A DNA stretch of 64,000 bases, taken from assembly GCF_963676685.1 (NCBI RefSeq), contig NC_092354.1, forward strand, positions 74,462,001 through 74,526,000. The letters are read 5' to 3'. Positions 2,701-64,000 of the stretch are shown here, piece by piece. Numbering within the stretch: the stretch's first letter is position 1; every line of letters starts with the position of its first letter. The notes under the pieces are model-generated. The model searched no databases, was not told the origin of the DNA, and saw nothing but the letters and a program-made list of their open reading frames with translations. This stretch comes from Mytilus edulis (Eukaryota). A program made the translations under genes and the position numbers.

Positions 2701-2738
2701 TATTTGATAATTGTAATATTCACAATGTTATGTAGTTT

Positions 2739-7667: not shown

Positions 7668-7860
7668 TTAGACCGTTGGTTTTCCCGTTTGAATGGTTTT
7701 ACACTAGTAATTTGGGGGGCCTTTATAGCTTGTTGTTCGGTGTGAGCCAAGGCTTTGTGTTGAAGGCCGTACGTTGACATATAATGGTTTACTTTTATAA
7801 ATTGTTATTTGGATGGACAGTTGTCTCATTGGCACTAATACCACATCTTCCTTTATCTAT
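7668..7860 (+). repeat. Abundant short interspersed repeat ending ...GTCTCATTGGCA.T.ATACCACATCTT
   Basis: Related copies at ~4240-4432, ~13620-13660, ~24870-25012 and, reversed, ~22410-22580. Confidence 0.7.
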
Positions 7861-9361: not shown

Positions 9362-9782
9362 GGGTGACTGGGGTATAGAAATATGGTCACTTGGTCTTCT
9401 CCCGACCGGCAGTAAAACGCTTGCCGAAGTGGGGCGTCCGTTTGGCTGTGCGGGATGTATCAAGTTCGCAGTCACGTCCGGTCAGAAGGGGGACGTTAAA
9501 TCCGATGCCTCGTGTAAAGAGAGTGCCACGCTCTTTGCACGTTGACAACCCTTTCAACAACTCTATGAGGGGTCCGTAGGTGGCCTGTTGCAAGGCAAAA
9601 TTTCTGTCCCTATCCAATATTCCCTCATTTTCCAGTGGCAGTCCAACTTTCCCCGACTATCATCCCAGATGGCCTCCATTGTATCAACCTACCTATTGTA
9701 TTTATTGTGAACTTGTTCTCGTCCTGAATATGCATGAAATATTTGCCACTGGACGTTAAGCAACCAACAATCAATCAATCAA
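9362..9782 (+). mobile_element. 5'-truncated SINE with MetaSINE-like core and (CAAT)n tail
   Basis: Core GGGGACGTTAAATCC...CGTGTAAAGAGAG...TTGCACGTT is shared with the SINE at 1652. Tail GGACGTTAAGCAACCAACAATCAATCAATC. 9-bp TSD TTCTATTAA (9353-9361 and 9783-9791). Confidence 0.8.
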
Positions 9783-15700: not shown

Positions 15701-16015
15701 GTTTATGATAAGCGAACCGGTTATACCCCGCCCAGTCAAGTGATAAAACATAAAGTAATACATATATGTCCATTTTCTGGATCATAATTTATTCAATTTA
15801 AAATAATGTCGTCAATATAAACATGTAGCTGATTCTTGCCAAATAGTGAAGGTTATATACTTGTATGTGTTTAGGTTAAATAAAACGAACCCTTGTTAAC
15901 TCATAAAGAGAAAACCTTAAACAATATAATTATCTTTTTGTTTTGAATTAAAGAATGGAACTAAGAAGAAGGAGAAAAAAACACCACCAAGTGGGATATT
16001 AGTGTCAAACCAACA

Positions 16016-36565: not shown

Positions 36566-36885
36566 TCAATCAATAGGAATTAATTTGGGAAAGCTTTCAC
36601 AATTTTCTAAAATTTCTGTAATCAAATGTGGATTTCTACCAGATCTTTCCAAAGCATGGAGTAGCTCTCTGATTGTTGAGTTATCTTCTCTGTTTCTCCA
36701 GCAATATAACATTTGTCTACTGACTTCCCGGAGTACTTTCGGATTGTCGTATTCTATTTGTTCCAGGCGTTCGATTTCAATACCGAGTTCTAAGCCAAGA
36801 ACCATCCACTCCTTACCAATTCGAAGACACAATTTGTCAAGCATCTCATCACTTGGCGACAGATTCAAAATCTTATCAGGCAAAT
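36566..36885 (-). CDS. Terminal death-domain exon of the intact ROCO gene
   Basis: PSDEMLDKLCLRIGKEWMVLGLELGIEIERLEQIEYDNP...QMLYCWR...TIRELLHALERSGR. Confidence 0.9.
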
Positions 36886-39800
36886 CTAAAACAAATATTT
36901 GTAGACTATTAAATAGTATAAGCTAGTAGGGGCAAATCTTATAAAACTATGTAAAGAAATGCTCTGTTATAATATGTTTCTTGTGTTTGAGCTGTTGATA
37001 TTTCGATTTGATTCGGGACTTTCGTTTAGAATTATTCTCGGAATTAAGTATTTGTGTTATTATATTTTTCTGGTTTGTTAATATTTTAATTAGGACACTA
37101 CAATATTTTCTTTCCGGAAACATGTTTTCTAGTGTATTACTCTTAGGTGGATAGATTTCACACTTAGACTGAACAGTGTCTTGATATAAAAGTTGTATGA
37201 TATCATTATGAACAGATATATCATGTTAGGGAGGGGTATTTGTGAAAAATACCAGTCGAGAGAATGTTAAATTTCACGAGCCGTAAGGCGAGGGAAATTC
37301 ATTCTCAAGACTGGTATTTTTCGCAAATACCCCTCAATAACATGATATATCTGTTTAATTACACCGAATGTTAATGTACTAAAACGCATTGATGATCGTG
37401 ACGTTACAAGCGTCCAGTCGGATAGAGTATTTTTTGGCAAATACCACGGCAGAGAGGGTAAAAAAGGCATATCCTTTTAGCAAATACCCCGGCGGCGTTA
37501 AAAATGAACGATATTCATTTGATAATAATAAATTGGTGAAAAATACACTGGCTATTAACCAATCAAAACCCCGGATTCTTACATAAGGTGTAATTATAAT
37601 TAAAATAATTGGTTCTTTGGGTCGGTTAAAAAATGATATATCAGCTTACTAGTTTTGATAACGTAGGAAAATATCACTGTAACAAACATGACAAAAGAAA
37701 AACAAAAACAAAAACAAAGAAAAGAAAAATGGGTTCTATAAATCATATGTGAGAAACTTTAAACACATGGTTGTTTCAGTATCTCAGGGAAAGTTTAAAA
37801 TATCACTTAATGGAGAGAGCAATATTTTTCTATACTGAATATGATTTAAAATATATCATACCGGTCTCCACTTCTTCCTGTCTCAGAATCTACAATAAAT
37901 ACGCAGATTTGAGTCGTCTTCACAAATGGATTTGTAATAAATGAGGTAAAAAAAATTGATATCAGTTTCTAATCGGTTCGTAAGTTTGTCCATAAAAGTA
38001 TTTGTTATTGCTGTTTTTCTTTTCGTTATTTTCTTTTTTTTGCTATTTTTTACTTAAAATTGTATCTTGTAACTACTTTTTTCCGCTCACGTTATATTAA
38101 AAAATTAAATTATATATATATAAAGATATAAAACACAAGCTGTCCATGAAAATGCATACACACACTGTTTTAATGTGTTGTTTTATACAGTCAACGTCAA
38201 TATATCATAACACGATTTTTTTGTTGCTTGATCATGTTGATATGGGCCATGTTATCCATTTAATAAATTAACAACTCGTTTAAGGAAAGTTAAACAAAGT
38301 TGGATTTAAAAGGGTCTCATTTGGTAATAAAGCATCCCACTTGGTTCAGTACTTTTTGCATTCTTGGTTTTTACATAATTTCGTGATGAAGATTAACCAA
38401 GAAAACTATTTCTCCCACATACGAATATATAATTGTTACTTTATGTTTTAGATAGTAAGTGATAGTATAGTTGTTGGAGAATAACGATTTTTTTTGGCAT
38501 ATAACCAATCACACTTATTGTCGATTTTATTGATAAAACATCCGTTATTGTGAAACCTGGAACAACTCAAGTTTCACCGATAAATCCAAATACGTACCTG
38601 ACACATGGCATGTCTGTTGATTTCAGCAGCTTCCATGGCCTTGACGAAATCTTTACATGATTTGTTCTGCTCTCTGCAGATACGAAGGCTATAAAATTTG
38701 TGCATAGGAATCGAATCAACATCAATGGCATCAAGTTTAGTAATCGAGACCCCAAGGTTGAATGCCAAGCTGCGTACTTCTTCTTTTGTTAAGCTATTAC
38801 AAATGCGAAGAAGCTGCGAGTCGTTGAGTAACATCGACAGAACGGCATATAGTATACCTAAATGAACATTAGAAATACAAAATATGATTTGTTTATTGAA
38901 TGTCTAAATTTTAAGAGAATACCATATGGCTTTTTCGATATCCCATCAGCATTAACCCGATACACCAAGAATCCCAAGATGTCTGCTTAAGGAATCATAT
39001 TGACTGAGTTTTGAAACAGAATGTAATATTGAAACAACCATATCATATATACCTTATCATTTACTTCACTAAGTAGATGTGTCTTTTTTTGTTGTGGCAT
39101 ACATATTAAATGCTTGAGTTTGCAATTGCAATTAGTCACTGATATCGATATCATCACGGATAGCTGATACAGTACTACTGCCGGTGATTCTTTCGAACAT
39201 ACAATTTATCTGTATTTACTACTTTCTTTATTCTAAAAAGTATTGTACTACAATAGTTTTTGAAATATTTTCCTCAATTAAAACCAGGTACTATCTGATT
39301 TTGTATACGAGTGTCGTCCTAACAAGACTCGTTAGTGTCGTTAAAATACACAAAATTGAAAGTTAAAATCACATATGAAATTGTATAGCATTAAATGAAA
39401 AACGTTTCAAACCGTTGTTTTCAAAACAAATGATGACCACAGGACTTTAATTATATGTTCATACGCGACTTGGTTCAGGTTGCACACCAATAAATTCCTT
39501 TAAAATTGTGTTTAATTCGTTGACATATAATGATTCTTTGAAATAACTCACTCGTTACCTCTATCACACAAAAATTGTATATTTTTGTCATTTTTAAATT
39601 TGCTGTCATATCACAAATAAACAACTAAAATATCCTTGTATCATTTAAATGAACTTTTCGATGGGTTGATATTTTCTACGTTTGTATGACTAACACCTTT
39701 ACGAATTTACCTCGGAGTCATGTTTTTATATTGGACATTTTTGCATATATATCCCTATGCAAACTAAATTATGGCCCAATGCCTTCCTTATAATGCGTAC

Positions 39801-42800
39801 ATCATATCACTAGACTTAAACTGTAAATATATTATATTTCATGAAATTTTCCCCTGTCACATATTTTTTTAGATTTTAAAGTAATTTCTTGCCTCAGCTT
39901 ACGTTCTATCCATTTGTTCTTTCTGGTAAGCGCGACAAAACATTAAAAAATTGACACCCTTCAACAAATGTCAGCCGGGTAAAGCATAATAGAAACTCGT
40001 TTCAAGACAATACATTTGTTTCATTTGAATTGAACATTACCTTGACATGAATCTGTACACTGTAAGATAGTCTGAAAGTATACAATGATACCACTTTGTT
40101 TAATTAATGCAAATTGCAAATGACAAATAATTCAAAACTTGTCATTTGTAACTATTATGTTTGTATGTTTTGTGTTACATTTAACATTGTGACTAAGCGG
40201 GAGGTTTGGCTAACCACAAATCAGGTCATACCGGCAAACTGCTAGTGTTATCTTATAGGTCATTTCTGGTATTATACCACCAAATCATGGTACGTCAAAT
40301 CTGGTTGTTTACGAAAATAGGTCGAAAAAAATATTGCCTTGAATTTTACAGTTGTTGGTAAATAAACCTACATTTTATTGCAGTAAAACAGTTCTTTGTA
40401 ATAAACGTATGTCCTGGGTCTTCAAAGCCCCATTTTTTTACTAAACCTTTGTACCCCGATTAAATAAAAGGAGACATTTGATTGGTTAACTTCCAGAGAT
40501 GGTTATTTTTTTTTATATGCAACGACATGTTATTTGAATTTTTTTCTATAGTATTGGACAGGATAAAAAATTACCCATGCCAAGTATATCTTTATTTGAA
40601 ACAAAGATAAATTCCGCACATTTTTTGGAAAATGCAAATTCAACAATGACTAATAGGGGAAGATAAATTGTGGCATTACACCTAATATGGGAAGCTGTAC
40701 ATGCACCTTTGACCTGGTGAGTAATCTCATGTGTTAAAATATCTTGCTATTTAAGTGAAATATTACAAAAAATGAAATATTCTGAGTGGGTTGACTCTCC
40801 AAAACACATTTTATGAGAACATTTTCTTGAAATAGGACTCTACCATGAATATCACAAAATGAACTTTATTTTTGGTTTTGTAGAAGAAAACATTTTTTTT
40901 AAATTGTCTTGTAATTTTTGCCCAAAAATACATATATAAAAAAACCTAGAAGAAAAGCTTCCAAATGCCTTACGGCTCGTGAAATTTAACATTCTCTCGA
41001 CTGGTATTTTTCGCAAATACCCCTCAATAACATGATATATCTGTTTAATTACACCGAATGTTAATGTACTAAAACGCATTGATGATCGTGACGTTACAAG
41101 CGTCCAGTCGGATAGAGTATTTTTTGGCAAATACCACGGCAGAGAGGGTAAAAAAGGCATATCCTTTTAGCAAATACCCCGGCGGCGTTAAAAATGAACG
41201 ATATTCATTTGATAATAATAAATTGGTGAAAAATACACTGGCTATTAACCAATCAAAACCCCGGATTCTTACATAAGGTGTAATTATAATTAAAATAATT
41301 GGTTCTTTGGGTCGGTTAAAAAATGATATATCAGCTTACTAGTTTTGATAACGTAGGAAAATATCACTGTAACAAACATGACAAAAGAAAAACAAAAACA
41401 AAAACAAAGAAAAGAAAAATGGGTTCTATAAATCATATGTGAGAAACTTTAAACACATGGTTGTTTCAGTATCTCAGGGAAAGTTTAAAATATCACTTAA
41501 TGGAGAGAGCAATATTTTTCTATACTGAATATGATTTAAAATATATCATACCGGTCTCCACTTCTTCCTGTCTCAGAATCTACAATAAATACGCAGATTT
41601 GAGTCGTCTTCACAAATGGATTTGTAATAAATGAGGTAAAAAAAATTGATATCAGTTTCTAATCGGTTCGTAAGTTTGTCCATAAAAGTATTTGTTATTG
41701 CTGTTTTTCTTTTCGTTATTTTCTTTTTTTTGCTATTTTTTACTTAAAATTGTATCTTGTAACTACTTTTTTCCGCTCACGTTATATTAAAAAATTAAAT
41801 TATATATATATAAAGATATAAAACACAAGCTGTCCATGAAAATGCATACACACACTGTTTTAATGTGTTGTTTTATACAGTCAACGTCAATATATCATAA
41901 CACGATTTTTTTGTTGCTTGATCATGTTGATATGGGCCATGTTATCCATTTAATAAATTAACAACTCGTTTAAGGAAAGTTAAACAAAGTTGGATTTAAA
42001 AGGGTCTCATTTGGTAATAAAGCATCCCACTTGGTTCAGTACTTTTTGCATTCTTGGTTTTTACATAATTTCGTGATGAAGATTAACCAAGAAAACTATT
42101 TCTCCCACATACGAATATATAATTGTTACTTTATGTTTTAGATAGTAAGTGATAGTATAGTTGTTGGAGAATAACGATTTTTTTTGGCATATAACCAATC
42201 ACACTTATTGTCGATTTTATTGATAAAACATCCGTTATTGTGAAACCTGGAACAACTCAAGTTTCACCGATAAATCCAAATACGTACCTGACACATGGCA
42301 TGTCTGTTGATTTCAGCAGCTTCCATGGCCTTGACGAAATCTTTACATGATTTGTTCTGCTCTCTGCAGATACGAAGGCTATAAAATTTGTGCATAGGAA
42401 TCGAATCAACATCAATGGCATCAAGTTTAGTAATCGAGACCCCAAGGTTGAATGCCAAGCTGCGTACTTCTTCTTTTGTTAAGCTATTACAAATGCGAAG
42501 AAGCTGCGAGTCGTTGAGTAACATCGACAGAACGGCATATAGTATACCTAAATGAACATTAGAAATACAAAATATGATTTGTTTATTGAATGTCTAAATT
42601 TTAAGAGAATACCATATGGCTTTTTCGATATCCCATCAGCATTAACCCGATACACCAAGAATCCCAAGATGTCTGCTTAAGGAATCATATTGACTGAGTT
42701 TTGAAACAGAATGTAATATTGAAACAACCATATCATATATACCTTATCATTTACTTCACTAAGTAGATGTGTCTTTTTTTGTTGTGGCATACATATTAAA

Positions 42801-45800
42801 TGCTTGAGTTTGCAATTGCAATTAGTCACTGATATCGATATCATCACGGATAGCTGATACAGTACTACTGCCGGTGATTCTTTCGAACATACAATTTATC
42901 TGTATTTACTACTTTCTTTATTCTAAAAAGTATTGTACTACAATAGTTTTTGAAATATTTTCCTCAATTAAAACCAGGTACTATCTGATTTTGTATACGA
43001 GTGTCGTCCTAACAAGACTCGTTAGTGTCGTTAAAATACACAAAATTGAAAGTTAAAATCACATATGAAATTGTATAGCATTAAATGAAAAACGTTTCAA
43101 ACCGTTGTTTTCAAAACAAATGATGACCACAGGACTTTAATTATATGTTCATACGCGACTTGGTTCAGGTTGCACACCAATAAATTCCTTTAAAATTGTG
43201 TTTAATTCGTTGACATATAATGATTCTTTGAAATAACTCACTCGTTACCTCTATCACACAAAAATTGTATATTTTTGTCATTTTTAAATTTGCTGTCATA
43301 TCACAAATAAACAACTAAAATATCCTTGTATCATTTAAATGAACTTTTCGATGGGTTGATATTTTCTACGTTTGTATGACTAACACCTTTACGAATTTAC
43401 CTCGGAGTCATGTTTTTATATTGGACATTTTTGCATATATATCCCTATGCAAACTAAATTATGGCCCAATGCCTTCCTTATAATGCGTACATCATATCAC
43501 TAGACTTAAACTGTAAATATATTATATTTCATGAAATTTTCCCCTGTCACATATTTTTTTAGATTTTAAAGTAATTTCTTGCCTCAGCTTACGTTCTATC
43601 CATTTGTTCTTTCTGGTAAGCGCGACAAAACATTAAAAAATTGACACCCTTCAACAAATGTCAGCCGGGTAAAGCATAATAGAAACTCGTTTCAAGACAA
43701 TACATTTGTTTCATTTGAATTGAACATTACCTTGACATGAATCTGTACACTGTAAGATAGTCTGAAAGTATACAATGATACCACTTTGTTTAATTAATGC
43801 AAATTGCAAATGACAAATAATTCAAAACTTGTCATTTGTAACTATTATGTTTGTATGTTTTGTGTTACATTTAACATTGTGACTAAGCGGGAGGTTTGGC
43901 TAACCACAAATCAGGTCATACCGGCAAACTGCTAGTGTTATCTTATAGGTCATTTCTGGTATTATACCACCAAATCATGGTACGTCAAATCTGGTTGTTT
44001 ACGAAAATAGGTCGAAAAAAATATTGCCTTGAATTTTACAGTTGTTGGTAAATAAACCTACATTTTATTGCAGTAAAACAGTTCTTTGTAATAAACGTAT
44101 GTCCTGGGTCTTCAAAGCCCCATTTTTTTACTAAACCTTTGTACCCCGATTAAATAAAAGGAGACATTTGATTGGTTAACTTCCAGAGATGGTTATTTTT
44201 TTTTATATGCAACGACATATTATTTGAATTTTTTTCTATAGTATTGGACAGGATAAAAAATTACCCATGCCAAGTATATCTTTATTTGAAACAAAGATAA
44301 ATTCCGCACATTTTTTGGAAAATGCAAATTCAACAATGACTAATAGGGGAAGATAAATTGTGGCATTACACCTAATATGGGAAGCTGTACATGCACCTTT
44401 GACCTGGTGAGTAATCTCATGTGTTAAAATATCTTGCTATTTAAGTGAAATATTACAAAAAATGAAATATTCTGAGTGGGTTGACTCTCCAAAACACATT
44501 TTATGAGAACATTTTCTTGAAATAGGACTCTACCATGAATATCACAAAATGAACTTTATTTTTGGTTTTGTAGAAGAAAACATTTTTTTTAAATTGTCTT
44601 GTAATTTTTGCCCAAAAATACATATATAAAAAAACCTAGAAGAAAAGCTTCCAAATGCAATTAAATTAAAAAATAGACTGACAAACTTTTATATCTGATA
44701 GCTTTATACAGCAAGAAAATACAAGAAAGTTTTTGAACTTGAAAAACTTTGTGCCCCTATGTTTATTATTTATCCTGAATGGTAATCTAACAACCATATT
44801 TGTATCATTTTATATCTTTTTGACCTATATATGGAACAGAGCAAACAACATGTAATATATGCATAGCACATGTAAACTTTTTTTTTCTATTAAATAATCT
44901 ATAGATATTTCTATNNNNNNNNNNNNNNNNNNNNNNNNNNNNNNNNNNNNNNNNNNNNNNNNNNNNNNNNNNNNNNNNNNNNNNNNNNNNNNNNNNNNNN
45001 NNNNNNNNNNNNNNNNNNNNNNNNNNNNNNNNNNNNNNNNNNNNNNNNGATCGACAAAAATATTCCTTTTAATTTGACAGTTGTATGTAATTAATCCTAC
45101 ATTTAATTGCAGTAAAACATTTTCTGTCTCATAATCATATGTCTTGGTTAATTCAAAGGACCATTATTTTTTTTTTGAAAAGTTCAAATTTAACAAAGAC
45201 TAATAGGGGAAAAGCAATGGCTGTATTACACCTTATGTGTGTATTGCATTTTAGTGTTTCTGTTGTGCCTTGTTCTCCTCTGATAGTTGATGTGTGTCCC
45301 TCAGTTTTAGTTGGTAACCCAGATTTTTTTTCTTAATCGATTGATGAATTTCGAACAGCAGTATACTACTGTTCACACATCGATATCAATATACTAGACT
45401 TTTATGTGACTATCATAAATGGACACATTATACAACATTTTTCTTCAAATAAACATTCGAGACATAAAGATAAAAATAACAGTAATAGCAAACCTGAATT
45501 TGCATTTTGAATACAACATAACTTTTCTTAAACAAGTGAACTGTCTGAAAAAATTTGGTATATTAGCCACTTTTCTATAATGTCTGTGACAGTACCAATA
45601 TTTTGATTCCATAGACTTCTTGCAATTAGAGCTAGTGGGAAATTATTTGCATCAGGCATTTTTGTGGTCTAGGTGTTCCTCCATTGATATATGAAACAGG
45701 AGATACTACGAGAGCAATCAAACACACTATTGACTGATCAAAGAATTAGAATATCGAAAAATATTCAACTCGAGACCGAACATCATTGACAATTTACGAA

Positions 45801-51800: not shown

Positions 51801-54800
51801 TGTTCAATCCATAGATAAATGAAACATATTTTTGGCTGTTATGAATATTTTTTAATAACTATTTACCATTTGTTTGTTCTAGAAGTTTCTGTGTCTTCAT
51901 ATCAAACAACAATTTTCCAAAGTACACGTCTATTCCATCAGTACTCTGTCTCTCTATAGGGATGTCTTTACCGATTAAATTCGACACAAGCGTTGTTTTT
52001 CCAGCTTCATAAGCTCCGACTACTAAAATTCGACTATCAAACGATGGTACTAAATCATTAGATAAAAGTTGAAAAAATTCAGCTCTGTCAGCTACAATGA
52101 AATATAAACAAAATGAAGTAACAAAACACTACTCGAAGAAAAATTAATCATCATAACCGCTGAATAGTTAACATTATGTAGGCTGTTATTTGTTGCTAAT
52201 AAAAAAGTGTTCTTATTTACTCTCATAGTTAAAGCTATGATTGTTTTGTTTTGTTTATAAGATATTGTCCAGTTTATCTTCGGCTTTAATAATAATATCA
52301 TATATTTTTTTTTAAATTAGAAGTAATTTATTTATCTCTTAATTACATCTTCTCCTTAACAGAAAACAACTATACTTGATATATTATTGTGCAACATTTA
52401 CATTTTAATGAGCAATGTTATAATTAATTTGTGTTTCAACTGTTCCAATTGTCCAACAAGGACTAGATGAAACACTCGCTTTGTATACTTACTTACTAGC
52501 ATGTCATCTAACAAGACTCTGATAACACTCTATATATGTGTAATTGTCAAAACGTAATCATTATAAATGCTTAAATAATTGATGTTTTTTTTAAATGAAA
52601 GTATTTGATTATCGTCTTGGTAGCGATGACACATAGAGCAAATATTTGAATATTTATTTTGAATATTTATACACGCTGTGGAATTCAGAGTGAAGCAACA
52701 TATTTATAATATTTTTAAAGAAAACCATCCCATGTTCATTTCTCATATACCCCCTCCTTTCCATGATGCATGTGTTCGATAATATTTTTTTTAACCTCAC
52801 CTCAATGTGTAATATTTCAATGGTTTTTAAACATCGGTGAACTACAAATGACTCTTATTTTGTCTATATTCTTTTAGTTTGAATCATATTTATAAATGTG
52901 ATATAAATCAATATAGTCTACCGTGTCAACTTCTGGTTGGGTATTAAACGTACAAAACTTGTTAGCGCTCTTGGAGTATTTTTTATATAATTCCGTATTT
53001 AATTCACTTGAACTTGACTATTGCATGCACTGTTGCAATTGACACGTTTGCTTTTTCGGTCAAACTCGACTTTTTTTTAAAACGGTTATTGTTTTTTTGT
53101 GCTGTTGAGACGCGAAACTCGTTTTTTTAAAGCTAGATTAGACCGTTGGTATTCATGTTTGAAGTATTTTAGTATTTAAGTACCATTTATAGCTTACTGT
53201 TCGATGTGAGCCAATGATTATCATTAATTTTATTTGTCAGAGTCGGAAACGAGACTTTCCGTTAATCTCTATTGTAAGTAATCAATTTACTACTTTCCTT
53301 CATATTGACGAGTTTGTACATCTTATTTTGCAGATGATTTTAAGATTCATTTGAATTTACCTGTATCTGTTATTATTTCTGCAGAAATGCAAACATAGAG
53401 AAAGTTCATCCTTGAAAAATTCAACTCTTAAAAGAAATATTGAAGCGCTTAGCCTTTTTTATTTAATTTATCATGTTCGGCTTATCATTTTGACTTTTAA
53501 CAGTTTTCCGCTTTATAGCAAAGTCGCTGCAAATTCTGAAATCGTCTATCTTTTTAACGTTCATATTACATTAATTGTTCCTACCAAATTATCAGAGCTC
53601 AATGAGAAAATCAAAAACTTCAATAATCAACTTTACAATCCTCTCTACTATGTAGATAGTATACACTTTTGTTCACACGATAATTTCTTCCGTCACGAAC
53701 AGGTGCTTCCTCATCTTATGCAAGACTGCTTCCTCCTGTCACGAGATCAAGGTATACAGGGAGCAAGTAATATTAGACACATCCTCTTTCCCGGTTCATC
53801 ACTAAGATCTGTGAAAAATCACAATAGGGGCACAACACAAAAACTAAAAGTCTTAATAAGGACAAGTATGTAGGAAGTGAGGCAATGGGAAATCACTAGA
53901 ACTATAGGTATAATAAGATAGGGAATACAAATAATAACAGTTGGTCAGTTCAGGCACAGCTGGGATAGGATCAGAGGAATAATACATATGTTAACAATCG
54001 TTCCATTCAAGGAAGAATGGTCGTCATTCCAGTGAACCAGTTTATACAGAAGAACACAAGAGACATGACTAAAATCAACGCATTAATGATCTTGCATCCA
54101 CTGTTGCATCAGCAGTTGCTGGTGCGTTCAGGGATTTTGTGTAAACTTATAACTGAAATGTTATACCCCAATAAAATTGAAATCTATAGTTATCACCATG
54201 CCACAATAAGTCGTTTTGTGAATGAAATGCAGGAAGAAATTCATATTAAAGACCTACCGAGATCAGACGGTTTCCTTTTGACCTCAGGGAAAACCAAGCC
54301 TTGTAAAGTTTGGTCAAAAGGAAACCGTTTGCAAACAGTATTATCATAAACAAGTTGTTGCCAAACAGGAGACTTCAAACAAGAATTGGTCGAAATCAAC
54401 TCATTGCTACTGGTTATCGTGCGAGAAGACGATTTCGGAGATTTTTGTCTACAAACAGACTTGAAGTGGCCAATGGTGCAGAGCTCGCCAACGTCGGAAA
54501 TTAGCATCTTGGAGGAATATCGATTGGTGCAATGAAAGTCGGTTTATCTTCCTTGGCCTGATCGTAGACCGGATTTGAACCATATCGAGCACATATAGAA
54601 CATAATTGGGTGTAAAATGTCCGAAAGGAACCCCCTGTTTAAAATCTTCATGGAATAAACAATGCCCTTCATCTGAAATAGTTGTGGGTAACTCAGCAAC
54701 AAATTCGTCGGTTGATGGCAGGTGTGATAATAAGTGTAGAGGTGGTTATCCGTGTAAATGACAGCTACATCAAAATAGTGATTCTTTGGCCTATAACGAT

Positions 54801-57800
54801 CAACCATGATGTGGACAATTATCTTAAGATTTATTTTGAAGTGTCTGACATTCCATTGTTTGATTACAGTAAACGATGTAAAATTATTATTTTTGTACAA
54901 AAATCTTTTTATTTTTTTTTTATCAAAATAGTGGTGAATTCAAATATTTGTTGTCATTCATTTTTTGATTTGATGTAATACCAATGTTATCATTAACAAT
55001 GTTTCAATATTAGTATACAAATACATTCTATCCAAGAAAGGAGGCTGATTTTCCGAGGTTAAAAAATCAAGATGTTGCAAAACTTTTTTTCCATTGGTAT
55101 ATATATAATTTTGTACGATGTTATACAACATCTTTTTTGGGGGGAATTTCAACAATGTTTTCAGAAAAACAAAAGGATTGTGAATAACAATCTTTAGATT
55201 TTTTACCTAGCAATATTTAAACAGAATTGTTTATGCTGTCTAAGTATGTCAGGTCTTTGCATTTTCTTTTGTTTTGGGGCTTTTGTCATGTGTTTTAAAG
55301 TGTGAAAAAATAAACATTTCCATTTGGAATGTAAATGGTTTGTTTAGAAGGTTAAATAGTGGTCTTAGCATTTCAAAATTCGATGATGAAAAATTTAAAA
55401 AATATTATAACTCGGGTAAAGATGAAAACCGTACCTGTTTCATCGTCATCCCAAGATGGCAGATGAAAAATTATGTATTGTTTGTTAAAGTGTTTCTATA
55501 TAAAAAAAATTACAAAATATACATTGGTACGATGTAAATTTATTAAAGTTTCACACGGAAATCACAAATTACTACGGTAACCGTGAAATATGCAGGAAAC
55601 AGGAAAATCGATTTGAAAAAAAATCGCTAAGATGACCTTAAATCATTATAAAAATATTTTCAAGATGACCGTATCATATAACAAGTATGACTGTGGTTGG
55701 TAAAAAGATTACCATAATTTGTAAAAGATGACCATTATTTGTAAAGGATAACTGTTATTTATAAAGGATAACATTACTGTAATTTATAAAAGATGACAGT
55801 AACTTTTAAAGGATGACCGTCAATTCTAAGAAATATCCGTATTTGTATTCATAGCCTTTTTTTTAGTTCGTCTCAGTATGGGCTCGGTTAACTATTTGCC
55901 GTATTTTGACAATGATAGTAAATTGCATATTTCTCGTAGGAAATATTTATTTATTTATAACGAGGTTAACATTTTTATATTTGGCAATAGTTCATAAAGT
56001 TCATTGTTTAATTCCGTTTGACACCCTTCTGCGACATAACCGTCAGAGGCGGATTTTGGAATAGAGGCCTGGTCCCCTTTTTCTTGGAAAAAAATGGTTG
56101 ATTATATAGGAATCACTGAAGCATGACCGGAGTGGCCCCTCTTATTCAGTCAGTGAGCCCCCACCTATGAAAATAAGTGGATCTGTCACTGACTTTCAAA
56201 TTTGAAGAACATCTTTTGAATGATATAGTATGTTCCCAAAATAAATATATTTGGCTTATAACCTTATCCTAACATCATGTTAAGCTTTGTTACTTCAACT
56301 CTGAAATGTACGAACCGATAGGTAGAATGGCCAGTGTTTTCATCCAAAATTTTCTTTAATAAAGAACATTTACAATGGTAGTTGATACGATATCATATCA
56401 ATTGGTGTACACGCATTAGCATTTTTAAGAAGGTGTATTTATTATCTGACATTAAAAAGAATCCCATAAATTAAAAAAATATTTCGTCTTGAAGTTGAAT
56501 GCTACATATGGTGAACTATGTATTTGAAGCACGTCGTATTGTCTTCTACCTTTAAAATAATAATCTCTAACAAATACGTTTTATTCCAACACGATTAATT
56601 ATTTTAAACAAAAAAAGGTTATACAAATACAGATGTTTCTTAGAATTGAAGGTCATCTTTTAAAAGTTACTGTCACCCTTTATAAATTACGGTCATCCTT
56701 TACAAATTAAGATCATTTTTTAACCAATTAAAGTAACCCTTTTTATGAATTGCTTATCCTGTTACGGTCATCTCGATTATGATTTACGGTCATCTTAGCG
56801 ATTTTTTTTCAAATCCAATTTCCTGTTTCATACACATTTATCGGTAGTGGTTTGTGATTTCCGTGTTAATCTTTATAAATTTACATCGTACCAATATATG
56901 CTTTGTAAAGAAAACGATATAGAAACCCTTTAACAGACGATACAGATACTGACCTTCGTTTTCATCCGCCATCTTGGGATGACCATGAATCTAGTTACGG
57001 TCATCAGCTTTACCCAGTGATTATACATGTAAGACTGTCAGAACCTCATGCTTCTTCTAAAGAAATTTTGGCATTAGATGAATACAAATGTCATGTCAAT
57101 TGTAGATCTGATTTAAATAAAAGTAGGGATGGATTGGCAGTATGAGTTAGAAAAGAAATGTTGACGAGAATTAAATTGATTGATAAATTTGTTAATGAGA
57201 TCATGTGGTGGAAGCTTGAAAAACATTATTTCGGTTTGACAAGGGATTATTTATTTTTATATATATATATATATATATTTCACCGGCAAACTTATTTCAT
57301 ACTGTTCGTACCAATTGTGACAAACACATTTTTGACAAATTATACAATGATGGAGGCAAATATGGTATTTCAGGGAAAGTAATGCTATTAAGAGGACCTA
57401 AATGCGCATGCAAAATGTGATAAGTTAGATTTTATTACAAATGAGTGACGATACTTTTGATAATTTTCAACCTGTCAATTATGAAGCTGATTGTATTCAT
57501 AAATTGAAAAATACGGAAATTCCACAAGTACTAACAATTATGAGAAATCAGTAATCGAGTCACAGCTAGGAAGTTAAAAATGGAGATTCTAAAAGGAAAA
57601 TAACTATTTACAACCATTGTTTCCATTGTTGACTATTGCATCTGCAGTGCATCATTGCTATCCAATATTATTAATTTTACAGTTGGACAATACTGCCCTA
57701 CACTGTCTGATCATAGTTCAATATCAGTCCAGATTTTATCTAAGTCAGTACAAACTAAAAGACCATATTCACAGAAAAATAACATGAAAAGAATTAACAT

Positions 57801-58193
57801 AAATGGAGCTCGAGAAAGAGCATCTTCGTTAGCCACGGGTTACGATCCACACCCCTTCATTTTTGGCAGATTGAGATATAATTTCGGAGACACAAGGGAA
57901 TAATTTTCATTGATTGCAGTCGAAACTAAGTGCGTCCAATCAAACAGCGCCTATAACATGATCACGTGTAAATGTAGACAGTGTATGTAAACAGTTGTCA
58001 TGCGCTTATTGTGCAACAAGTCTTTACATCCCTAAACATACGACTATATTTAGCAACAATTTGAATGATTTTTAATCGACTAATATAAGTTCCTATGTAT
58101 ATTTTCGTTTACTGCTTAACCAAGTATGTAGAATCTAGACGCCACCGTGTTTTTGTGTATTTAAAACTAATCTTTCATCCTATGATTTTATTT

Positions 58194-58229
<36 letters not shown>

Positions 58230-61200
58230 GAAGGAGGAGGAGGAGGAGGAGGAGGAGGAGGAGGACGATGACGAGGAGGAGGTGGAGGAGGAGGAAACAT
58301 TTTTATTTTTAATGACAGTTTTTATCTCTTTTTATCATAGTTTATGCAGAAAAATAATAAAAAGTGCATAAAAAAATACTAATTTAGTGTTTAACTGAAA
58401 GTAACCGTTAGGAGTACGATAGCATTTGATGAAATCTATAATATTAAACATCACTACATCTATACACGTGTTTTGTATTATACTGACGATAACATCTAAC
58501 CAGAAGTATACAAGATATAAAAAGGGACACTTAAACTCATAAGTCGAAAACAAACTGACAAATGACATTGTTAAAATTCAAGAAACAGACAAACATACAA
58601 ATAACAGTTCATTTAACATGACATACAAAAAATCTAAACTAATTCTACAAAGAAATAGGGGTGATCTTACAGGAGGACTCAACACTTTAAGTAAATTAAA
58701 TTTGACTTGTTTGATTTTCATACATTTTTTTCTTCAACATGTAGTTTGACCTGTTTTTTTGAAAATATGAAAATTTCCAGAAATTTAAACAACACAATTT
58801 ACAGTAATACTTTCGTTGGATATATATCAGTTTGACAGACACCAATCGTTTTGCTGAAAAGTTTCATAAATTTTCACAAAAAAACTACGATTGACATGGA
58901 TAGCATAAACAAGCCCCTTTGGAAGTAGGTTTCATTTAGTTTCAATTTTTAAAACAGCATAATAAAGTACTAAGACCACACATAACTGTTTTGTACAGGT
59001 TATTATTATAAAAAGTCGTTAATCTAGAAAATGTTAGTATTGTCGCCTATGAAAGAATACATAGTACCGTTTTCCCTATAAATCCGACATATTTAGTGTC
59101 ATAAATATACATTTCAACAAGCACACATAATTCAATCTGTTCTTTCATTTAGTTTAGGATTCATATGACCAAAAAAAGTTCAAATCCTAGAAGTCATCCA
59201 AAACTGCACACATGTAAATGATGGTTGCGGGCACGATTGTAAATTATATCACGAATAAAAGATTTTTGGAAAACGGTATATCGAGCTAGAATTTTCTTCA
59301 AGCAATTAAGAAGAAAAAATATAAATAAGATGCAGTTAAATATATATATATGGAACTCAAAATACATTTTAAGACAACGATTTGCACAATTCTATTTTAT
59401 CGATTTCACCGAGAGTCTTCTAAATATTGTCATACAAGTGAGAGAAGTGGCTAGCTTTAAAACCAGGTTTAGGGAAATTTTGTAGCAAGAAAAAAGATCG
59501 GTGACATCATTTTTAATAAAAAAAAAACTAAAACATATTATAAAACCTGTCTTCTTACTTCATTCAAAATTATATCTAATAGATTTCTTTTGTGTACGGA
59601 AATGTATTTTTTCATGAACAATTTATGCATATTAAGTAAATAAAATTTTGAACGACTCATAGCCTGACAAATAGCACGGTGACCCTTTTTTTTTATAAGA
59701 GCATAGTAAAATCTTCATTTATGGCAAAGTCTAAGAACATTCTATTTCGGGAAATATATACCGATAATTTGCCTTAAGGGGGATCGGGTCTCTCAGTCAT
59801 AAAACATTACTCAGTACTCCGAGTACAAAATAAGTGCTCGAAACACAAATCCAGTATTTTGAATGGTTGATTCTTGATTCTGATTACAAAAATTGTGCTC
59901 GAAAGTTTTATGACCGCAAGGCCTGGACTATTCGACTGCGCATAATTTCACGCATGAAATACCATGCACACGAAAAGTTCCTGTCGTAAATTCACATTTA
60001 TCTTTTTTAATATTTTGATTGATTAAAAATAATATATTATTGTATTTTTGTCACTAAAAAAATATTAACGTTATTATGTGTATTATATTATATCAGTGAC
60101 TTATATTTTGTATTTGTTTATTCTTTGAAGAAATATTTCAGCTTTTTATATTACGGTTTTGTAACTAGTGATAGTCCGATAAAAATATGTCAACACCTCT
60201 ATTTTCCCTATCGTTTCTTTGAAAAACGGTCCCTTTTACATACATGTTTAAAAGTAATACTTTTAGCTTAAATGGTCTGGGACCCCCTATTGTGTTCGAC
60301 CAATTTGATTCACTCTCTGTAAAGATTAAAAAACAAAACATACGGCACTTCTGACAGAAACTTCGAATAGACCCTAACCACCTTAAGATTCTGATTTGTT
60401 CCTAATGTGAAGCACAAAACGATTGACGCCAGAGGCTTGGAAAGGAGTCAATTGTAAAGGTATACAGTATGCCTGACAGCAATTGTATTCTAAAAACACT
60501 TGTTTACAGTACAGATAGTGTTTTTATCTATGATATGAGTCGACAAAATACTTGAGAACTGAATTTGTTTCAATACGTTCATTCATTAGTTATTTTTCAA
60601 CTTTGACTAGCCAAAAAACCTTCCATGGTCTGTAGGTGCCATGTATGGATTCTGAATATATAACACTTTTATAAGGCCTTAAGGGCGTACGATACAGTTT
60701 TGTTAAATGAGGTCGAAATTTTGTATATTTGCTCAAAATGTGGATTTTGGGCCGTATTTTTCCTTTCGAAAGAAAGACATAACTATTTTGTTTTAAAAGA
60801 TAAACACAAATTGTTTTTTGTTAAATAATGTGTAGTTTCTTTTTTATAAGTTTCCTAAAATTTAATGCATTTTTATTCAGGATTATCTCATATTTGTCAA
60901 ATGCTCATGAATTGGAAAAAAAAAAGTCATTTTTTGCTGTATATTTATCAAAATTAAAAAAAATGCACTATTTACAGATTTATAAAATTTGATCCACATT
61001 ATCTCCCCGCAAAATGACACAAAATGTCGTTTTAGAAAATAGGGGTCCATGCACTCGTTTTCAAATTACATCAGTTTGAATGATAAAAATCAGTCGAAAA
61101 ATGCTTCTCCTCCCGATATGTCACAGTTTGACGTCGCGAAAATAACATTTTACGTTAGCAACGTCATTACCTCTACTGAAACTGTATCGTATGCACTTAA

Positions 61201-62588
61201 AAAGGCCTTCCAGTTATATATAAATTCATTTACTAATTATATATTGTAGATGTGTTGGTTAACAAATATTTATTGTAATTTTCAATTATATCAGTTGATA
61301 ATGAAAATCTTTATTGCCAGTATTGGCAGTTGATCATCACTTTCATGGGAAAATGAAATCGATGTTAAAATCAACGATTATAAGACTAAATATATGTCTT
61401 TCACGGACAATCCAAAGGGCTGAGGCCCTACATTACATTTCCCCCCGTTTTTGGATAAAATATATTCTATAACCCTTTACCAGTTTTCTGTATACTATAA
61501 ACCAATAAGAATAAGACACACAGGCTAAGTCACATGTTAAAACAATTATTTTTTCTACATTCGTATTTTTTGAAATATAGATGAAAGGTTCACTTAAACA
61601 CTTGATATATATAATGGACATTTTTTTTAATACTATTTATTTCTATGAATTATTGTGTTTGCCTTAATTTAAATATTAAAAGTATGACACAACACTTGTA
61701 TGCCGACTTAATCATTTTTTTCATAATACACAACAACAATTATTGAATGAACCATTCATGTATTCTGCAGGCCATTTGTAGACTTGATGTACAAAACTTT
61801 GACGAAAACAATTGTACAGATTTCAAATACATATCGCTTAACATTCAGACATCATATGATTTTAAATAAAGGCAAGAGTAGTATATCGATGTTCAAAAGT
61901 CCTAAATCGAATGAGAGAAAAACGAATTCAGGTTTTTGACTAAAACCGAGGGAACTATCAGAGGAAAACATGGAAACTACAGAAACACTGAAGTGCAACA
62001 AAAAAAAAAAAATGTCAACACACATAGAACCGAACTATTTGATAAAAACTTAGAAAGATCCGAACTATTTGATAAAAACTTAGAAAGAACCGAACTATTT
62101 GATAAAAACTTAGAAAGAACCGAACTATTTGATAAAAGCTTAGAAAGAACCGAACTATTTGATGAGAAACATGTCTGAAATATTTTAAAACCCAATTACC
62201 AAGCCCTGACAACTTATGAGTCTTTGTTTGAATATTTAAAACATGATCCCGGTTCAAATTTCATTGAATTCAATCTACATTTGTGTGTACCTTTCTACCA
62301 ATTATCATCCCGAAAACTACTACTCAAAACAAAACGCCATGATTATAAAATGTCATAGTTTTTGTGAAGTCATCAACTCTATACATAACGTCCGATTGAG
62401 GCATGTCAAAAATTATACAACGCCGAAAGCCCGCGCTTCCTATATCGTTTCTTAGATATGGTTGAAGTGTGAATTCGTTAATATTTTAATGAATTCTCAA
62501 AGACACAATAAATGTATGTAAATACGTAAAGACTTTAGAGTTACAAGACAAAACATGATAAAATACTCACCCGTATCTACATCAAACA
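36566..62588 (-). CDS. ROCO-family GTPase, Roc-COR-death domain-death domain, no kinase; 5' end not established
   Basis: Exons: 62571-62588 (tentative), 53361-53378, 51867-52091 (G1 GAYEAGKT, G2 STDGID), 50485-50838 (G3 DFAGQ..YH.THQ.F), 47714-47820 (G4 ATHKD), 45997-47208 (COR), 43731-43761, 42288-42547 (DD1), 41552-41579 and 36566-36885 (DD2). Duplicate exon set at 40041-40071, 38598-38857 and 37862-37889. About 850 aa, open throughout. Confidence 0.88.
37211..37600. mobile_element. Fold-back element with a long internal hairpin
   Basis: Imperfect inverted arms 37211-~37277 and ~37293-37355 around the loop GAGCCGTAAGGCGAG. Confidence 0.75.
38598..38857 (-). CDS. Duplicated first death-fold exon of the ROCO gene
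   Basis: Identical to 42288-42547 (LLNDSQLLRICNSLTKEEVRSLAFNLGVS...MCQ). Confidence 0.75.
42288..42547 (-). CDS. First death-fold exon of the ROCO gene
   Basis: 260-nt GT-AG exon with the helical death-fold pattern D.QL..I...L......LA..LG.S...LD.I. Confidence 0.8.
44915..45048. other. Assembly gap (134 N)
   Basis: Run of N characters. Confidence 1.
45997..47208 (-). CDS. Roc C-terminus/COR exon of the intact ROCO gene
   Basis: Open 404-codon exon with COR-like motifs WGQKVPKQF..LE, L.FL...G...Y, IVIDP..L.DVL..I and YLVP.M. Confidence 0.9.
48063..49189. mobile_element. MITE with TATATGTAGGA termini and subterminal GATGGT/ACCATC repeats; contains nested repeats
   Basis: TATATGTAGGA...(GCGATGGT)n on the left and (ACCATCGC)n...TCCTACATATA on the right. 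A nested ~140-bp element at 48388-48525 is related to 56043-56192. Confidence 0.65.
50485..50838 (-). CDS. Roc G3-motif exon of the intact ROCO gene
   Basis: IPVLDFAGQIIYHATHQTFITSHGIYLITFN, the Roc switch II consensus. Confidence 0.9.
51867..52091 (-). CDS. Roc P-loop exon of the intact ROCO gene (not in the ORF track)
   Basis: SRILVVGAYEAGKTTLVSNLIG...STDGIDV; 225-nt phase 1-1 exon. Confidence 0.9.
54190..55105 (+). mobile_element. Decayed Tc1/mariner transposase
   Basis: Fragments HATISRFV...IKDLPRS (HTH-GRP region), RNQLIATGYRARR, LPWPDRRPDLNHIEHI* (WPxxSPDLNPIE motif) and QQQIRRL...EVVIR, with frameshifts and an internal deletion. Confidence 0.8.
55300..57800 (+). mobile_element. Non-LTR retrotransposon APE endonuclease remnant interrupted by a MITE
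   Basis: ISIWNVNGL before the insert. After it: LSE, RDGLAV*VRK, W.KL.K..FG...D, EDLNA (GDFNA), SIVDY and SDH. Confidence 0.75.
55409..57019. mobile_element. Non-autonomous DNA transposon with ~400-bp TIRs, CAC-type end and 5-bp TSD (Transib-like)
   Basis: Right end ...CTTTACCCAGTG, left end AACTCGGGTAAAG. ATTAT is duplicated (55404-55408 and 57020-57024). Subterminal GATGACCGT/ACGGTCATC repeats. Confidence 0.7.
58197..58295. repeat. (GAT)n(GAG)n compound microsatellite
   Basis: Directly visible in the sequence. Confidence 0.97.
59778..60382. mobile_element. TTAA-flanked MITE (Kolobok-like)
   Basis: TTAA|GGGGGATCGGGTCT ... AGACCCTAACCACC|TTAA; 14-bp TIR with 3 mismatches. Confidence 0.55.
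60683..61196. mobile_element. TTAA-flanked MITE (Kolobok-like)
   Basis: TTAA|GGGCGTACGATACAGTTT ... AAACTGTATCGTATGCAC|TTAA; 18-bp TIR with 2 mismatches. Confidence 0.75.
62026..62170. repeat. 30-bp minisatellite x~5
   Basis: AGAACCGAACTATTTGATAAAAACTTAGAA repeated. It generates the spurious repeat ORFs at 61936-62257. Confidence 0.95.
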
Positions 62589-64000
62589 CTGAAAAAAAAA
62601 CTTACATCATTCATTCTCTACTTTGAGTGATACATAAATTGTCTGGGATAGCTGTAATTATTACGATTAAGTTAAAAATTAAAATGTATATGGCTTATAG
62701 TAATAAACATTTCTTGTTTAACAAGCATATGAAAAATACGTATTAGAATTATGCACATTTAAATAAATGTGTCCAGTTGTGTGACATCATTTACTTTTAC
62801 TGATGGTTAACACTTAATGGCAAGTATTTCTGTTCAACAGTAATTAGTACATTTAGTTACAACGTCATCTTACTGTTTAAGCTTTGGATAGCAGTGTCCT
62901 CGAAACCAAACACAATTAGCAATCACAATCAATTATTTTCACAAGAATCTTACAATTATTTGGAGGATGAATGAGTGGAAGTAGTATCATTTACGATGAT
63001 TTCTGTCATTTACACATCGGTTATGATTGGTTACTCTTCTTAGTATTCTAACGATATATCATATCATATGAAGCAACATACTACAATTAACCTAACGCGT
63101 ATGAATATTGACAACCTTGTTTCGCATAATGAGTTATGAGTGACTTTTCAGACGATTGATGTTGTTACTTTAGCTCCAACATTTAGAAACTGTTGTGACA
63201 CTTTTTGAATCCGCGATGGTGAATGAAACAAAATTATACTCATAATAAAGTAACTCTTGAACAATTTAGAGGTTTTCCATATTTATTTTGTAAAATATGC
63301 ACACATAGAGATTCAGAGTTCTTTAAAAAGCTTTACATAGGGTTCAAACTAAGTTAAACATGATTCCTTATCATTAACTTCACTTTTGAAGGAATATTTT
63401 ATCTTAAATGCAAGGTCGCTCATCCACCATTTTTGACATAGGAAAATCCTTTATCAAGTCATGACAGTTGTTATGCATTCCTTTGATGTGATTGATGTGT
63501 TTGGGCTTTTGATTTTGTCATTTTGATTGGGGACTTTCCTTTTTAAATTTTTCTCGGAGTTCAGTATTTTTCTGATTTTATCTTTTAAATTACGTTGCAC
63601 AAGTATGAATTAGAAATAATTTTTTGATAAGAAAATGTACTTGTGTGGCACTATTTCAACATCGTTTAATTTCGTATATTCCTTCCAAAATGTTTACCTT
63701 AATACATATGATCATGTGTCCCTGTTGTTAAAATTGTGACACTTTAATTACACAATAGTATCGTCTTTCCTTCGTTATTTCTTTTTTTTTTTTGACAACT
63801 CGATTTTTTAAACAAGACAAGTTTAAAACTTTAATCAATAAGCATTCGAGAAAATTGTATTACAATGTATAGTCCCCTACCAATAGACATCTTATTATAC
63901 AGGAACAAAATGCTAAAATTGATCTATAACTTGTCATTGTTTTAGCTATATCGATAATATTTTGAAGCATGATGAGAAAAGGTGTTGAAACTGAATAATA

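Follow-up and report, generated by a model that had tools for sequence, protein, structure and literature searches.

We identified a minus-strand spliced gene, designated gene A, that encodes a kinase-less ROCO GTPase with the order Roc-COR-Death-Death. It occupies 36566..52091 of the window, the 64,000-nucleotide stretch of Mytilus edulis DNA analyzed here, and continues beyond it. The model comprises 874 codons, and its spliced frame is open to a stop codon at 36566. Features of the gene and its surroundings are as follows (window positions unless the contig is named; (-), minus strand).

Contig 74556734-74556710 (-): putative start exon of gene A, 25 nt, 43 kb upstream, joined on the basis of homology
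Contig 74554687-74554664 (-): putative microexon, 24 nt
Contig 74551973-74551953 (-): putative microexon, 21 nt
Contig 74548332-74548315 (-): microexon, 18 nt, outside the window, spliced to Roc exon 1 in RNA contigs
Contig 74528024-74528004 (-): putative microexon, 21 nt
52092..64000 (-): portion of the 5' intron region that falls inside the window; gene A runs on past the window
62571..62588 (-): microexon cassette, 18 nt, frame-compatible, sister of the exon at contig 74548332-74548315
51867..52091 (-): Roc exon 1, with the alpha-0 helix, P-loop (G1) and switch I (G2)
50485..50838 (-): Roc exon 2, a variable helical insert followed by G3 (DFAGQ)
47714..47820 (-): Roc exon 3, with G4 (ATHKD)
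45997..47208 (-): large exon, 1212 nt (404 codons), AG/GT ends, with the end of Roc, N-COR and C-COR
43731..43761 (-): linker microexon, 31 nt, CxxxC, identical peptide in annotated homologs; duplicate at 40071-40041
42288..42547 (-): DD1, divergent death domain; duplicate at 38857-38598
41552..41579 (-): linker microexon between DD1 and DD2, 28 nt; duplicate at 37889-37862
36566..36885 (-): DD2, canonical death domain, and stop codon
37280..44658: 3.69-kb tandem duplication (37280-40968 and 40967-44658, 99.7% identical, one interior substitution) that doubles DD1 and its two flanking microexons
479..16059 (-): copy B, a complete tandem paralog with start exon (16059-16035), microexons (14980, 12671, 11084), Roc, COR, DD1 and DD2

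The four Roc motifs read in the initial annotation were all recovered on the minus strand in this open frame: GAYEAGKT (52017-51994), STDGID (51945-51928), DFAGQ (50629-50615) and ATHKD (47740-47726). G1 to G4 are intact in the window, and gene A has the Roc GTPase of a ROCO protein. Among 89 aligned relatives, the Asp of G3 was conserved in 88 and the Gly in all 89. The Pfam Roc match (E 7e-10) was measured on protein P0001, which is 97.8% identical to the gene A product, and the COR-A match of gene A (E 1.3e-9) was above the cut-off, placing COR directly after Roc. The 404-codon exon assigned to COR in the initial annotation was confirmed in length and splice ends; it is not COR alone, as it includes the end of Roc.

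After COR, gene A encodes two death domains and then stops, so that the position of the kinase in LRRK1/2-type (group 2) proteins holds none. The claimed absence of a kinase also held upstream of Roc: the catalytic-loop motif was found neither in six frames of the region window+36000-131100 nor in 188 proteins, and between the start exon and Roc there was no kinase and no long frame except a reverse transcriptase (RT) remnant. No LRR match was obtained in close homologs, and gene A itself encodes only some 29 residues ahead of Roc exon 1. No NACHT or NB-ARC ATPase was detected, as the domain search returned Roc and Ras matches only.

The structure model of the gene A product (pLDDT 84, pTM 0.81) was used for the fold assignments, excluding an earlier model built from 11 close sequences (pLDDT 44). 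Its Roc-COR part matched LRRK1, CtRoco RocCOR and LRRK2, including 3dpu and 6hlu (best E 4e-18); among the Foldseek matches listed, all were Roc-COR proteins or GTPases and none was a solved death domain. The last exon matched Pfam Death (E 2.1e-12), and the closest solved relatives of DD2 are the death domains of CRADD and FADD. A direct Pfam search with DD1 gave no Death match, only DED (E 0.011). DD1 forms six helices at residues 659-735 of the model, and its profile matches that of DD2 (E 5e-21, aligned at 99.4%). Judged by this predicted fold and the profile match, DD1 is a death domain, in agreement with the divergent and canonical death folds proposed from the sequence.

Transcript contigs were examined for splicing, and their status as RNA rests on intron-skipping joins. 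The joins 51864/50835 and 47714/47208 were present in runs X1, X2 and X3, and 50485/47820 in run X1 only, all with CT..AC ends. RNA-supported joins thus cover the Roc and COR exons and one microexon-Roc junction, and those from COR to DD1 and DD2 are predicted from the open frame. In raw-read run X24, no exon joins occurred in the 6% that was read, with depth below 2 in the exon-bearing bins. None of the three outcomes that the initial annotation had set against its claim, namely no spliced transcript, an upstream kinase or a DD1 that is not a death fold, was observed.

Four runs yielded three different 5' neighbors of Roc exon 1, an exon that itself shows 0-1 differences from the window over 229 letters. 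The partner was the 18-nt exon 34 kb upstream in two of four contigs (runs X1 and X2; 17/17 letters, a single match in the genome), a variant of it in one, and something else in one. Two different neighbors occur under one organism label, and the sequences next upstream of these neighbors were not found as exons in this genome. The different joins between runs may be alleles rather than isoforms.

The microexons noted upstream of Roc within the window were partly upheld. That at 62588-62571 is a cassette; the candidate at 53378-53361 (18 nt) has neither cassette flanks nor RNA support and was rejected, and none of the four contigs joins either to Roc, two of them going instead to the exon 34 kb upstream. 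Gene A appears to start 30.7 kb beyond the end of the window, with no more than some 29 residues ahead of Roc exon 1. Its start exon has homologs ahead of all three tandem copies (A, B and C) and gives the same start as annotated proteins P0007 and P0037. The initial annotation placed any sensor domain beyond base 64000, where no folded one was found; the 5' end outside the window is likely built from tiny, fast-changing exons. Short symmetric phase-1 exons (18-27 nt) are arrayed ahead of A, B, C and one further paralog. The array of sister gene C is a charged heptad repeat (65% E/D/K/R) whose 14 pieces are free of stops, which arose by chance in 2 of 5000 shuffles. No such array was found in the 32 kb scanned upstream of the paralog on contig C8 (P0011 group), whose short basic start is conserved, so the array is dispensable for the Roc-COR-Death-Death architecture.

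We compared the rates of change of cassettes and core. Cassettes differed at 24% of sites and held-out flanking intron at 10-11%, a 2-2.5-fold excess seen in 8 of 8 pairs in both designs, with pN of 0.27-0.29 against pS of 0.12-0.16; 12 of the 16 cassettes come from the array of sister gene C, which is without RNA support, the counts are small and the pairs are not fully independent. The held-out designs replaced a choice of pairs by flank identity, which was biased. Between A and C, dN/dS was 0.16 in COR, 0.16 in DD1, 0.03 in DD2 and 0.02-0.41 in Roc, and 1.15 in the variable Roc insert; DD2 was almost identical (pN 0.008). As judged from these ratios, purifying selection acts on COR and the death domains.

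Tandem duplications and retroelements are abundant in the region. A, B and C form a birth-and-death cluster, adjoined by C-type lectin genes, in which copy B is a pseudogene with at least 5 internal stops and a Lys-to-Ile change in the P-loop. The 3.69-kb duplication within gene A is either a recent event or an assembly artefact. Using all duplicated exons shifts the frame, and a three-death-domain frame is open only when the second 31-nt exon is skipped.

Counting paralogs as the initial annotation had suggested, we obtained 102 genome-wide matches to the COR exon and 150 to the Roc exon. Roc, COR and Death-like domains are enriched among dispensable mussel genes, and Table S52 of that study counts 273 COR domains (PMC7653742). 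Two death-like repeats occurred in 32 of 146 distant representatives; by this count the Roc-COR-Death-Death architecture is common, not rare. None of 48 long relatives matched a kinase or LRR, whereas many of them have exchangeable domains of sensor or effector type; in bivalve relatives ankyrin, SH2, Macro, Med25, caspase or STAND domains occupy the N-terminal slot. Family members are annotated as uncharacterized or even as serine/threonine protein kinase despite the absent kinase. Invertebrate Roc-COR proteins with death-fold domains were already in print, as was the COR count in mussel; newly seen are the 5' end beyond the window, its 18-24-nt phase-1 microexons, the splicing of one of them to Roc, and cassettes outpacing introns.

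Gene A resembles several known systems in part. DAPK1 (ROCO group 3), as described in PMC6337361, likewise has Roc-COR followed by a C-terminal death domain and no LRR. However, gene A lacks its N-terminal kinase, calmodulin region and ankyrins, has two death domains and belongs to a family of more than 100, whereas DAPK1 is a single conserved gene. MFHAS1 and other LRR-Roc-COR proteins (group 1) differ in their N-terminal LRRs. The 17 ROCO genes of Trichoplax are a similar expansion amid CARD, death, TPR, LRR and AAA domains, and kinase is not among the domains listed in that account (PMC4104024); the mussel family is far larger and has tandem death domains, and a microexon N-terminus is not mentioned for Trichoplax in the same account. 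Bacterial LRR-AP-GTPase-COR-effector conflict proteins are described with a Roc-COR switch, a variable C-terminal effector (TIR, caspase or adaptor) and a fast-evolving N-terminus (PMC8195603), but the fast part there is LRRs, found in 0 of 48 mussel relatives, rather than short microexon helices. Brown algal LRR-ROCO candidate immune receptors are likewise clustered, expanded and diversified at the N-terminus by one repeat per exon, although their LRR exons are of 72 nt against heptad exons of 18-27 nt in mussel, and they have no tandem death domains in these descriptions (PMC11378527, PMC4104024). ROCO-TIR/Death proteins of Aplysia and sea anemone also fuse Roc-COR to immune signaling domains and were proposed as novel signaling components, but as reported they are few, TIR-centered and often with LRR (PMC9334734, PMC5094078). 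Schistosome micro-exon genes share microexons and high dN/dS at a host-parasite interface; those described are secreted parasite proteins (PMC4350168), whereas the mussel cassettes tip an intracellular host GTPase. NLR/STAND receptors would work alike, with a sensor slot, nucleotide switch, death-fold effector, lineage expansion and integrated domains, but the mussel protein has a Ras-like GTPase with COR as its switch instead of a NACHT/NB-ARC ATPase, and its effector is C-terminal.

Gene A may encode an NLR-like intracellular immune switch in which Roc-COR, changing with its bound nucleotide, would cluster the death domains and the short, fast-evolving N-terminal helix, likely assembled from microexons, would act as specificity or bait, a proposal we regard as evenly poised. 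Roc would bind and hydrolyze GTP and COR would mediate a monomer-dimer cycle, as in CtRoco. The microexon peptides would extend the alpha-0 helix, which joins Roc to the LRR domain in other ROCOs; the cycle would therefore be shifted by a ligand or pathogen effector that engages this extension or the variable switch-I insert. The clustered death domains would then recruit an adaptor of the CRADD/FADD/MyD88 type and activate caspase or NF-kB. An immune or cell-death switch is plausible, with indirect support from family size, enrichment in dispensable genes and the fast N-terminus; against it, some 29 residues are small for a sensor, a single microexon join was seen in RNA, and the C8 paralog has no array. 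More tentatively, bivalves may possess a large unrecognized receptor system that parallels NLRs but is built on a Roc-COR chassis, each genome having hundreds of genes that combine exchangeable bait domains with death-fold effectors; the bait of this subfamily would be heptad-sized microexon cassettes under diversifying selection and varying between individuals, a programmable helix replacing LRRs. If these are immune switches, well over 100 genes per mussel genome could be studied as a receptor class in farmed bivalves. It would be unusual for recognition to be diversified through fast-evolving heptad microexons on a host signaling protein. Gene A is also a natural minimal ROCO in which to ask what the Roc-COR cycle delivers when no kinase is attached, a question still standing for LRRK2 and DAPK1.

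Other readings were weighed against the immune switch. The very short N-terminus, the ankyrin, SH2, Macro or Med25 domains of many relatives, the nearly unchanged DD2 and the charged heptads of sister C would fit a sensor-less helper, which signals through its death domains only after COR pairing with sensor-bearing ROCO paralogs and whose microexon helix determines which partner is chosen or how it is spaced and does not bind foreign ligands. In plant NRC pairs, helpers are usually the conserved members; the cassettes change fast and differ between runs, unlike such helpers, and we consider this reading unlikely. Unlikely, too, is a non-immune role in trafficking, cytoskeleton or stress signaling like that of LRRK2 or DAPK1, with the array a product of neutral turnover. 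Studied ROCOs do have such roles (PMC6337361, PMC4104024) and the region is prone to duplication and retroelements, but neutral turnover predicts neither exons outpacing their own introns with pN above pS nor domain-swapping families this large.

Allelic N-terminal helices might instead be compared between ROCO molecules, with a mismatch triggering death-domain signaling, for example against foreign mussel cells; fungal heterokaryon incompatibility is the model for such allele matching. The varying 5' neighbors of Roc, two under one organism label and with upstream sequences absent as exons here, and the heptad size of the cassettes suit helix-helix matching. However, foreign alleles have no demonstrated route into one cytoplasm and a pathogen bait predicts polymorphism equally; this self/non-self reading is very improbable. 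That the window covers the 3' end of a DAPK-like kinase gene, or else a dead gene fragment, is hardly credible and already largely refuted: DAPK1 does end in Roc-COR-Death, using every exon of the DD1 duplication shifts the frame and copy B is dead, but a start exon lies ahead of all three copies, the kinase motif is missing from the frames and proteins searched, spliced contigs exist and the core is under apparent purifying selection.

Several further candidates were considered. A Pro-rich match at 58294-58226 proved to be trinucleotide repeat sequence. In P0002, P0003 and P0004, the annotated N-terminus corresponds to sequence immediately preceding a Roc acceptor and probably reflects an error in the gene model. 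Upstream of sister C, a DZIP3-type HEPN exon and an 86-codon exon of compatible phase were taken as a nested fragment of another family, as none of the 4 longer homologs contained Roc, COR or Death, but they may belong to gene C. A kB-like 10-mer (by the general kB consensus) lies about 95 nt before the ATG; although such a match also arises in 42 of 200 shuffles of that 10-kb locus, it is preserved in genes A and C but has decayed in pseudogene B, a weak hint.

We re-read the four Roc motifs of the initial annotation in the window and found them on the minus strand. The coding core of this gene (gene A) consists of the following exons, all with AG/GT ends. The window spans C11:74462001-74526000. 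Coordinates above 64000 extend the window numbering into neighbouring DNA, and the place on contig C11 is the value plus 74462000.

52091-51867, minus strand, exon 1 of the coding core
50838-50485, minus strand, exon
47820-47714, minus strand, exon
47208-45997, minus strand, exon of 404 codons
43761-43731, minus strand, exon
42547-42288, minus strand, exon
41579-41552, minus strand, exon
36885-36566, minus strand, exon

Contigs from three sequencing runs (X1, X2 and X3) skipped two of the three introns among the first four exons, and that of X1 also skipped the third, confirming a spliced transcript. The raw-read run X24, of low depth and about 6% read, gave no such exon joins. The joins predicted after the fourth exon gave the same junction peptides as annotated homologs and were also backed by Logan proteins of a paralog. 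The gene A model was 97.8% identical to the protein P0001 over 847 residues, and the close relatives bearing names were all from Mytilus species.

The structure of P0001 was predicted from 114 sequences with a pLDDT of 84, and the best Foldseek matches of the model were LRRK1, CtRoco RocCOR and LRRK2. The second death domain (DD2) scored above the Pfam Death cut-off, and its nearest solved structures were CRADD and FADD. The first (DD1) had no Pfam Death match and showed six helices in the predicted model. Profiles of the first and second repeats, built separately from 53 proteins, aligned at 99.4% (E 5e-21). DD1 of P0001 alone matched the second-repeat HMM at no better than E 0.29, and we therefore regard DD1 as divergent. 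Near the end of C-COR, the cysteine at position 617 of P0001 is invariant in 103/103 aligned relatives and is possibly part of a metal site.

The assembled window contains an apparent 3.69-kb tandem duplication that doubles DD1 and both linker microexons, with one interior substitution, which is intronic. Either block used alone gives 874 residues. Use of all exons of both blocks leads to a stop at codon 799; if the second 31-nt exon is left out, the frame stays open for 970 residues and encodes three death domains. A palindromic element of about 145 nt (37211-37355), possibly a MITE, lies at the edge of the duplication.

We located two further copies and the predicted 5′ ends as follows.

16059-479, minus strand, copy B, a full second copy whose frame is interrupted by five or more stops and whose P-loop is broken
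about 131100-245500, copy C, a third copy and sister gene beyond the window
94734, start exon of A, 25 nt, ATG and phase-1 donor, matching the annotated starts of proteins P0007/P0037, in-frame stop upstream
245513, start exon of C, 25 nt, ATG and phase-1 donor, matching the same annotated starts, in-frame stop upstream
16059, decayed start-exon homolog before B

As the start exon is present before A and C and decayed before B, all three share one plan of start exon, microexons and Roc-COR-DD-DD. We infer the start-to-microexon joins; in A, the start exon and microexons would encode about 29 residues ahead of the Roc exons. Some 95 nt upstream of the start codon of A (L035:830-839, window+94839-94830) and of C (L050:1615-1624) lies a 10-mer that fits the kB consensus and is decayed before pseudogene B, a weak hint.

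Four runs supplied sequence ends that extend past the 5′ side of the first Roc exon. The X1 and X2 ends agreed in 17/17 letters with an exon of 18 nt at 86332-86315, their sole match in the genome, and the X3 end was a variant of it with two amino-acid-changing differences. X7 carried a different neighbour. In these contigs the Roc exon itself departed from the window sequence by 0-1 of 229 letters, and a search of the genome gave no exon for the letters next upstream. The initial annotation had placed a microexon upstream of Roc at 62588, which none of the four runs used.

A splice-site scan upstream of A and C gave 17 gene-strand microexons of 18-24 nt, and under relaxed settings over 264 kb the numbers were 24 for the gene strand and 6 for the opposite strand. 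They lie within tandemly duplicated intron units, are read in phase 1 and mostly measure 21 nt, one heptad. The C start exon, read together with 13 cassettes, is free of stops over 99 codons (2/5000 shuffles); this array is 65% charged, with heptad periodicity and likeness to the helical repeat of the protein P0016. A paralog 12 Mb away (C11:62628478-62663332, L061-L065) had nine upstream candidates of 21-27 nt, mostly Pro/Phe/Gly-rich and unlike A and C in peptide chemistry. Another paralog in that region had three, and none were found upstream of the paralog on contig C8.

For 16 cassettes (four of A and 12 of C), one flank served to form the pairs and the other for the measurement. Differences affected 39-40 of 165 exon sites (24%) versus 10-11% in flanks, and exon divergence exceeded flank divergence in 8/8 pairs in both designs and in 89/92 of all pairs. 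Cassette pN was 0.27-0.29 and pS 0.12-0.16, the latter near the intron rate; CpG transitions accounted for 4-6 differences. In view of the small counts and the common history of the pairs, we gave the nominal p-values no weight. Between A and C, the core exons had dN/dS of 0.02-0.41. The exception was the helical insert that separates switch I from G3, with 1.15 for this pair and 0.48-0.72 in comparisons with three other paralogs.

The 1.37-Gb genome contained at least 102 COR-exon matches (468 candidates, 102 scored) and at least 150 first-Roc-exon matches (307 candidates, 150 scored), clustered and on many contigs. A profile search reached 2990 representatives with an E value of 0.001 or better, and what follows concerns 150 of these. 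Among the matches listed, 0/48 longer representatives scanned had a kinase or LRR match at E 1e-5. Extra domains in these 48 included ankyrin (7), SH2, HEPN and CARD (3 each), Macro and EH (2 each), and nSTAND3, Med25, caspase, TIR, OTU, SH3 and RVT (one each); part of these fusions may be gene-model errors. In the bivalve ROCOs P0087, P0122, P0131 and P0049, predicted fusions place Med25, caspase, EH-Macro-SH2-EF-hand or nSTAND3 before Roc, like the integrated domains of plant NLRs. Among 146 new representatives of the matches listed, many of them fragments, death-like repeats numbered two in 32, one in 54 and none in 60. Named clusters (18/20 looked up) were all bivalves: Mytilus, Saccostrea, Mizuhopecten, Argopecten, Mercenaria, Sinanodonta and Potamilus. 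The kinase-less Roc-COR-death-death gene is real and, as an architecture, one of very many.

Published passages describe Roc-COR proteins with CARD/death domains in Trichoplax (PMC4104024) and LRR-ROCO immune candidates with exon shuffling in brown algae (PMC11378527). In Aplysia as well as anemones, ROCO-TIR/Death proteins are on record (PMC9334734, PMC5094078), as are LRR-GTPase-COR-effector systems in bacteria (PMC8195603). Table S52 of the mussel pan-genome lists COR 273, Roc 226 and Death-like 529, in excess in dispensable genes (FDR 2.6e-5, 4.4e-5 and 1.3e-6, respectively); a main-text passage names DEATH, BIR and IMAP GTPases and not Roc (PMC7653742). The tables of PMC10776947 hold one COR gene. 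A term search gave no Roc mention in PMC8382680, PMC12373286, PMC6321704 or bioRxiv 2020.09.15.298695, whose supplements may list Roc. No paper on bivalve ROCO expansion or microexon-tipped ROCOs was found, a weak negative covering top search results and few subscription journals. The interest lies in the so far unexamined bivalve ROCO family and in the fast-evolving microexon tip.

In ROCO proteins, C-COR dimerises, CtRoco is mainly a monomer with GTP and a dimer without nucleotide, and an extra N-terminal helix, alpha-0, joins Roc to LRRs, according to passages of PMC6337361. The P0001 model has a helix at the alpha-0 place, at low confidence. The microexon peptides may extend this helix; the variable surfaces (N-terminal helix and Roc insert) would meet a changing ligand, and the conserved output would be clustering of death domains. 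We give about an even chance to gene A encoding such a switch. That it acts as a helper to sensor-bearing paralogs seems fairly unlikely, a non-immune role is unlikely, and self/non-self matching is quite improbable. A DAPK-like or dead gene is very improbable; between the A start exon and Roc no kinase catalytic-loop motif was found, in agreement with the absence of a kinase proposed initially, and a reverse-transcriptase remnant was the sole minus-strand frame longer than 131 codons there.

The surrounding DNA holds the following features.

20716-20943 and 21284-21568, plus strand, a pair of open frames resembling exons, no Pfam match, flanked by a lectin gene on one side and copy B on the other
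31224-29315, minus strand, C-type lectin gene 1, between A and B, last exon Pfam Lectin_C E ~1e-12
24754-23581, minus strand, C-type lectin gene 2, paralog of gene 1, between A and B, last exon Lectin_C E ~1e-12
L046:7380-7937 (window+211937-211380), minus strand, DZIP3-type HEPN exon, phase 1-1, in the 5′ intron region of C
L046:365-622 (window+204622-204365), minus strand, 86-codon exon, phase 1-1, in the 5′ intron region of C

The homologs of the last two form a HEPN family without Roc, and the two exons may represent a nested relic, or else a domain that was captured. A minus-strand LINE-like element (L035:2961-7046, window+96961-101046) with a coiled-coil ORF1, endonuclease and reverse transcriptase lies 2 kb upstream of the A start exon. 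Between the C start exon and its first microexon, about 10 copies of a tandem unit of about 2 kb (L048-L049, window+225900-243400) were recognised as recurring short matches.
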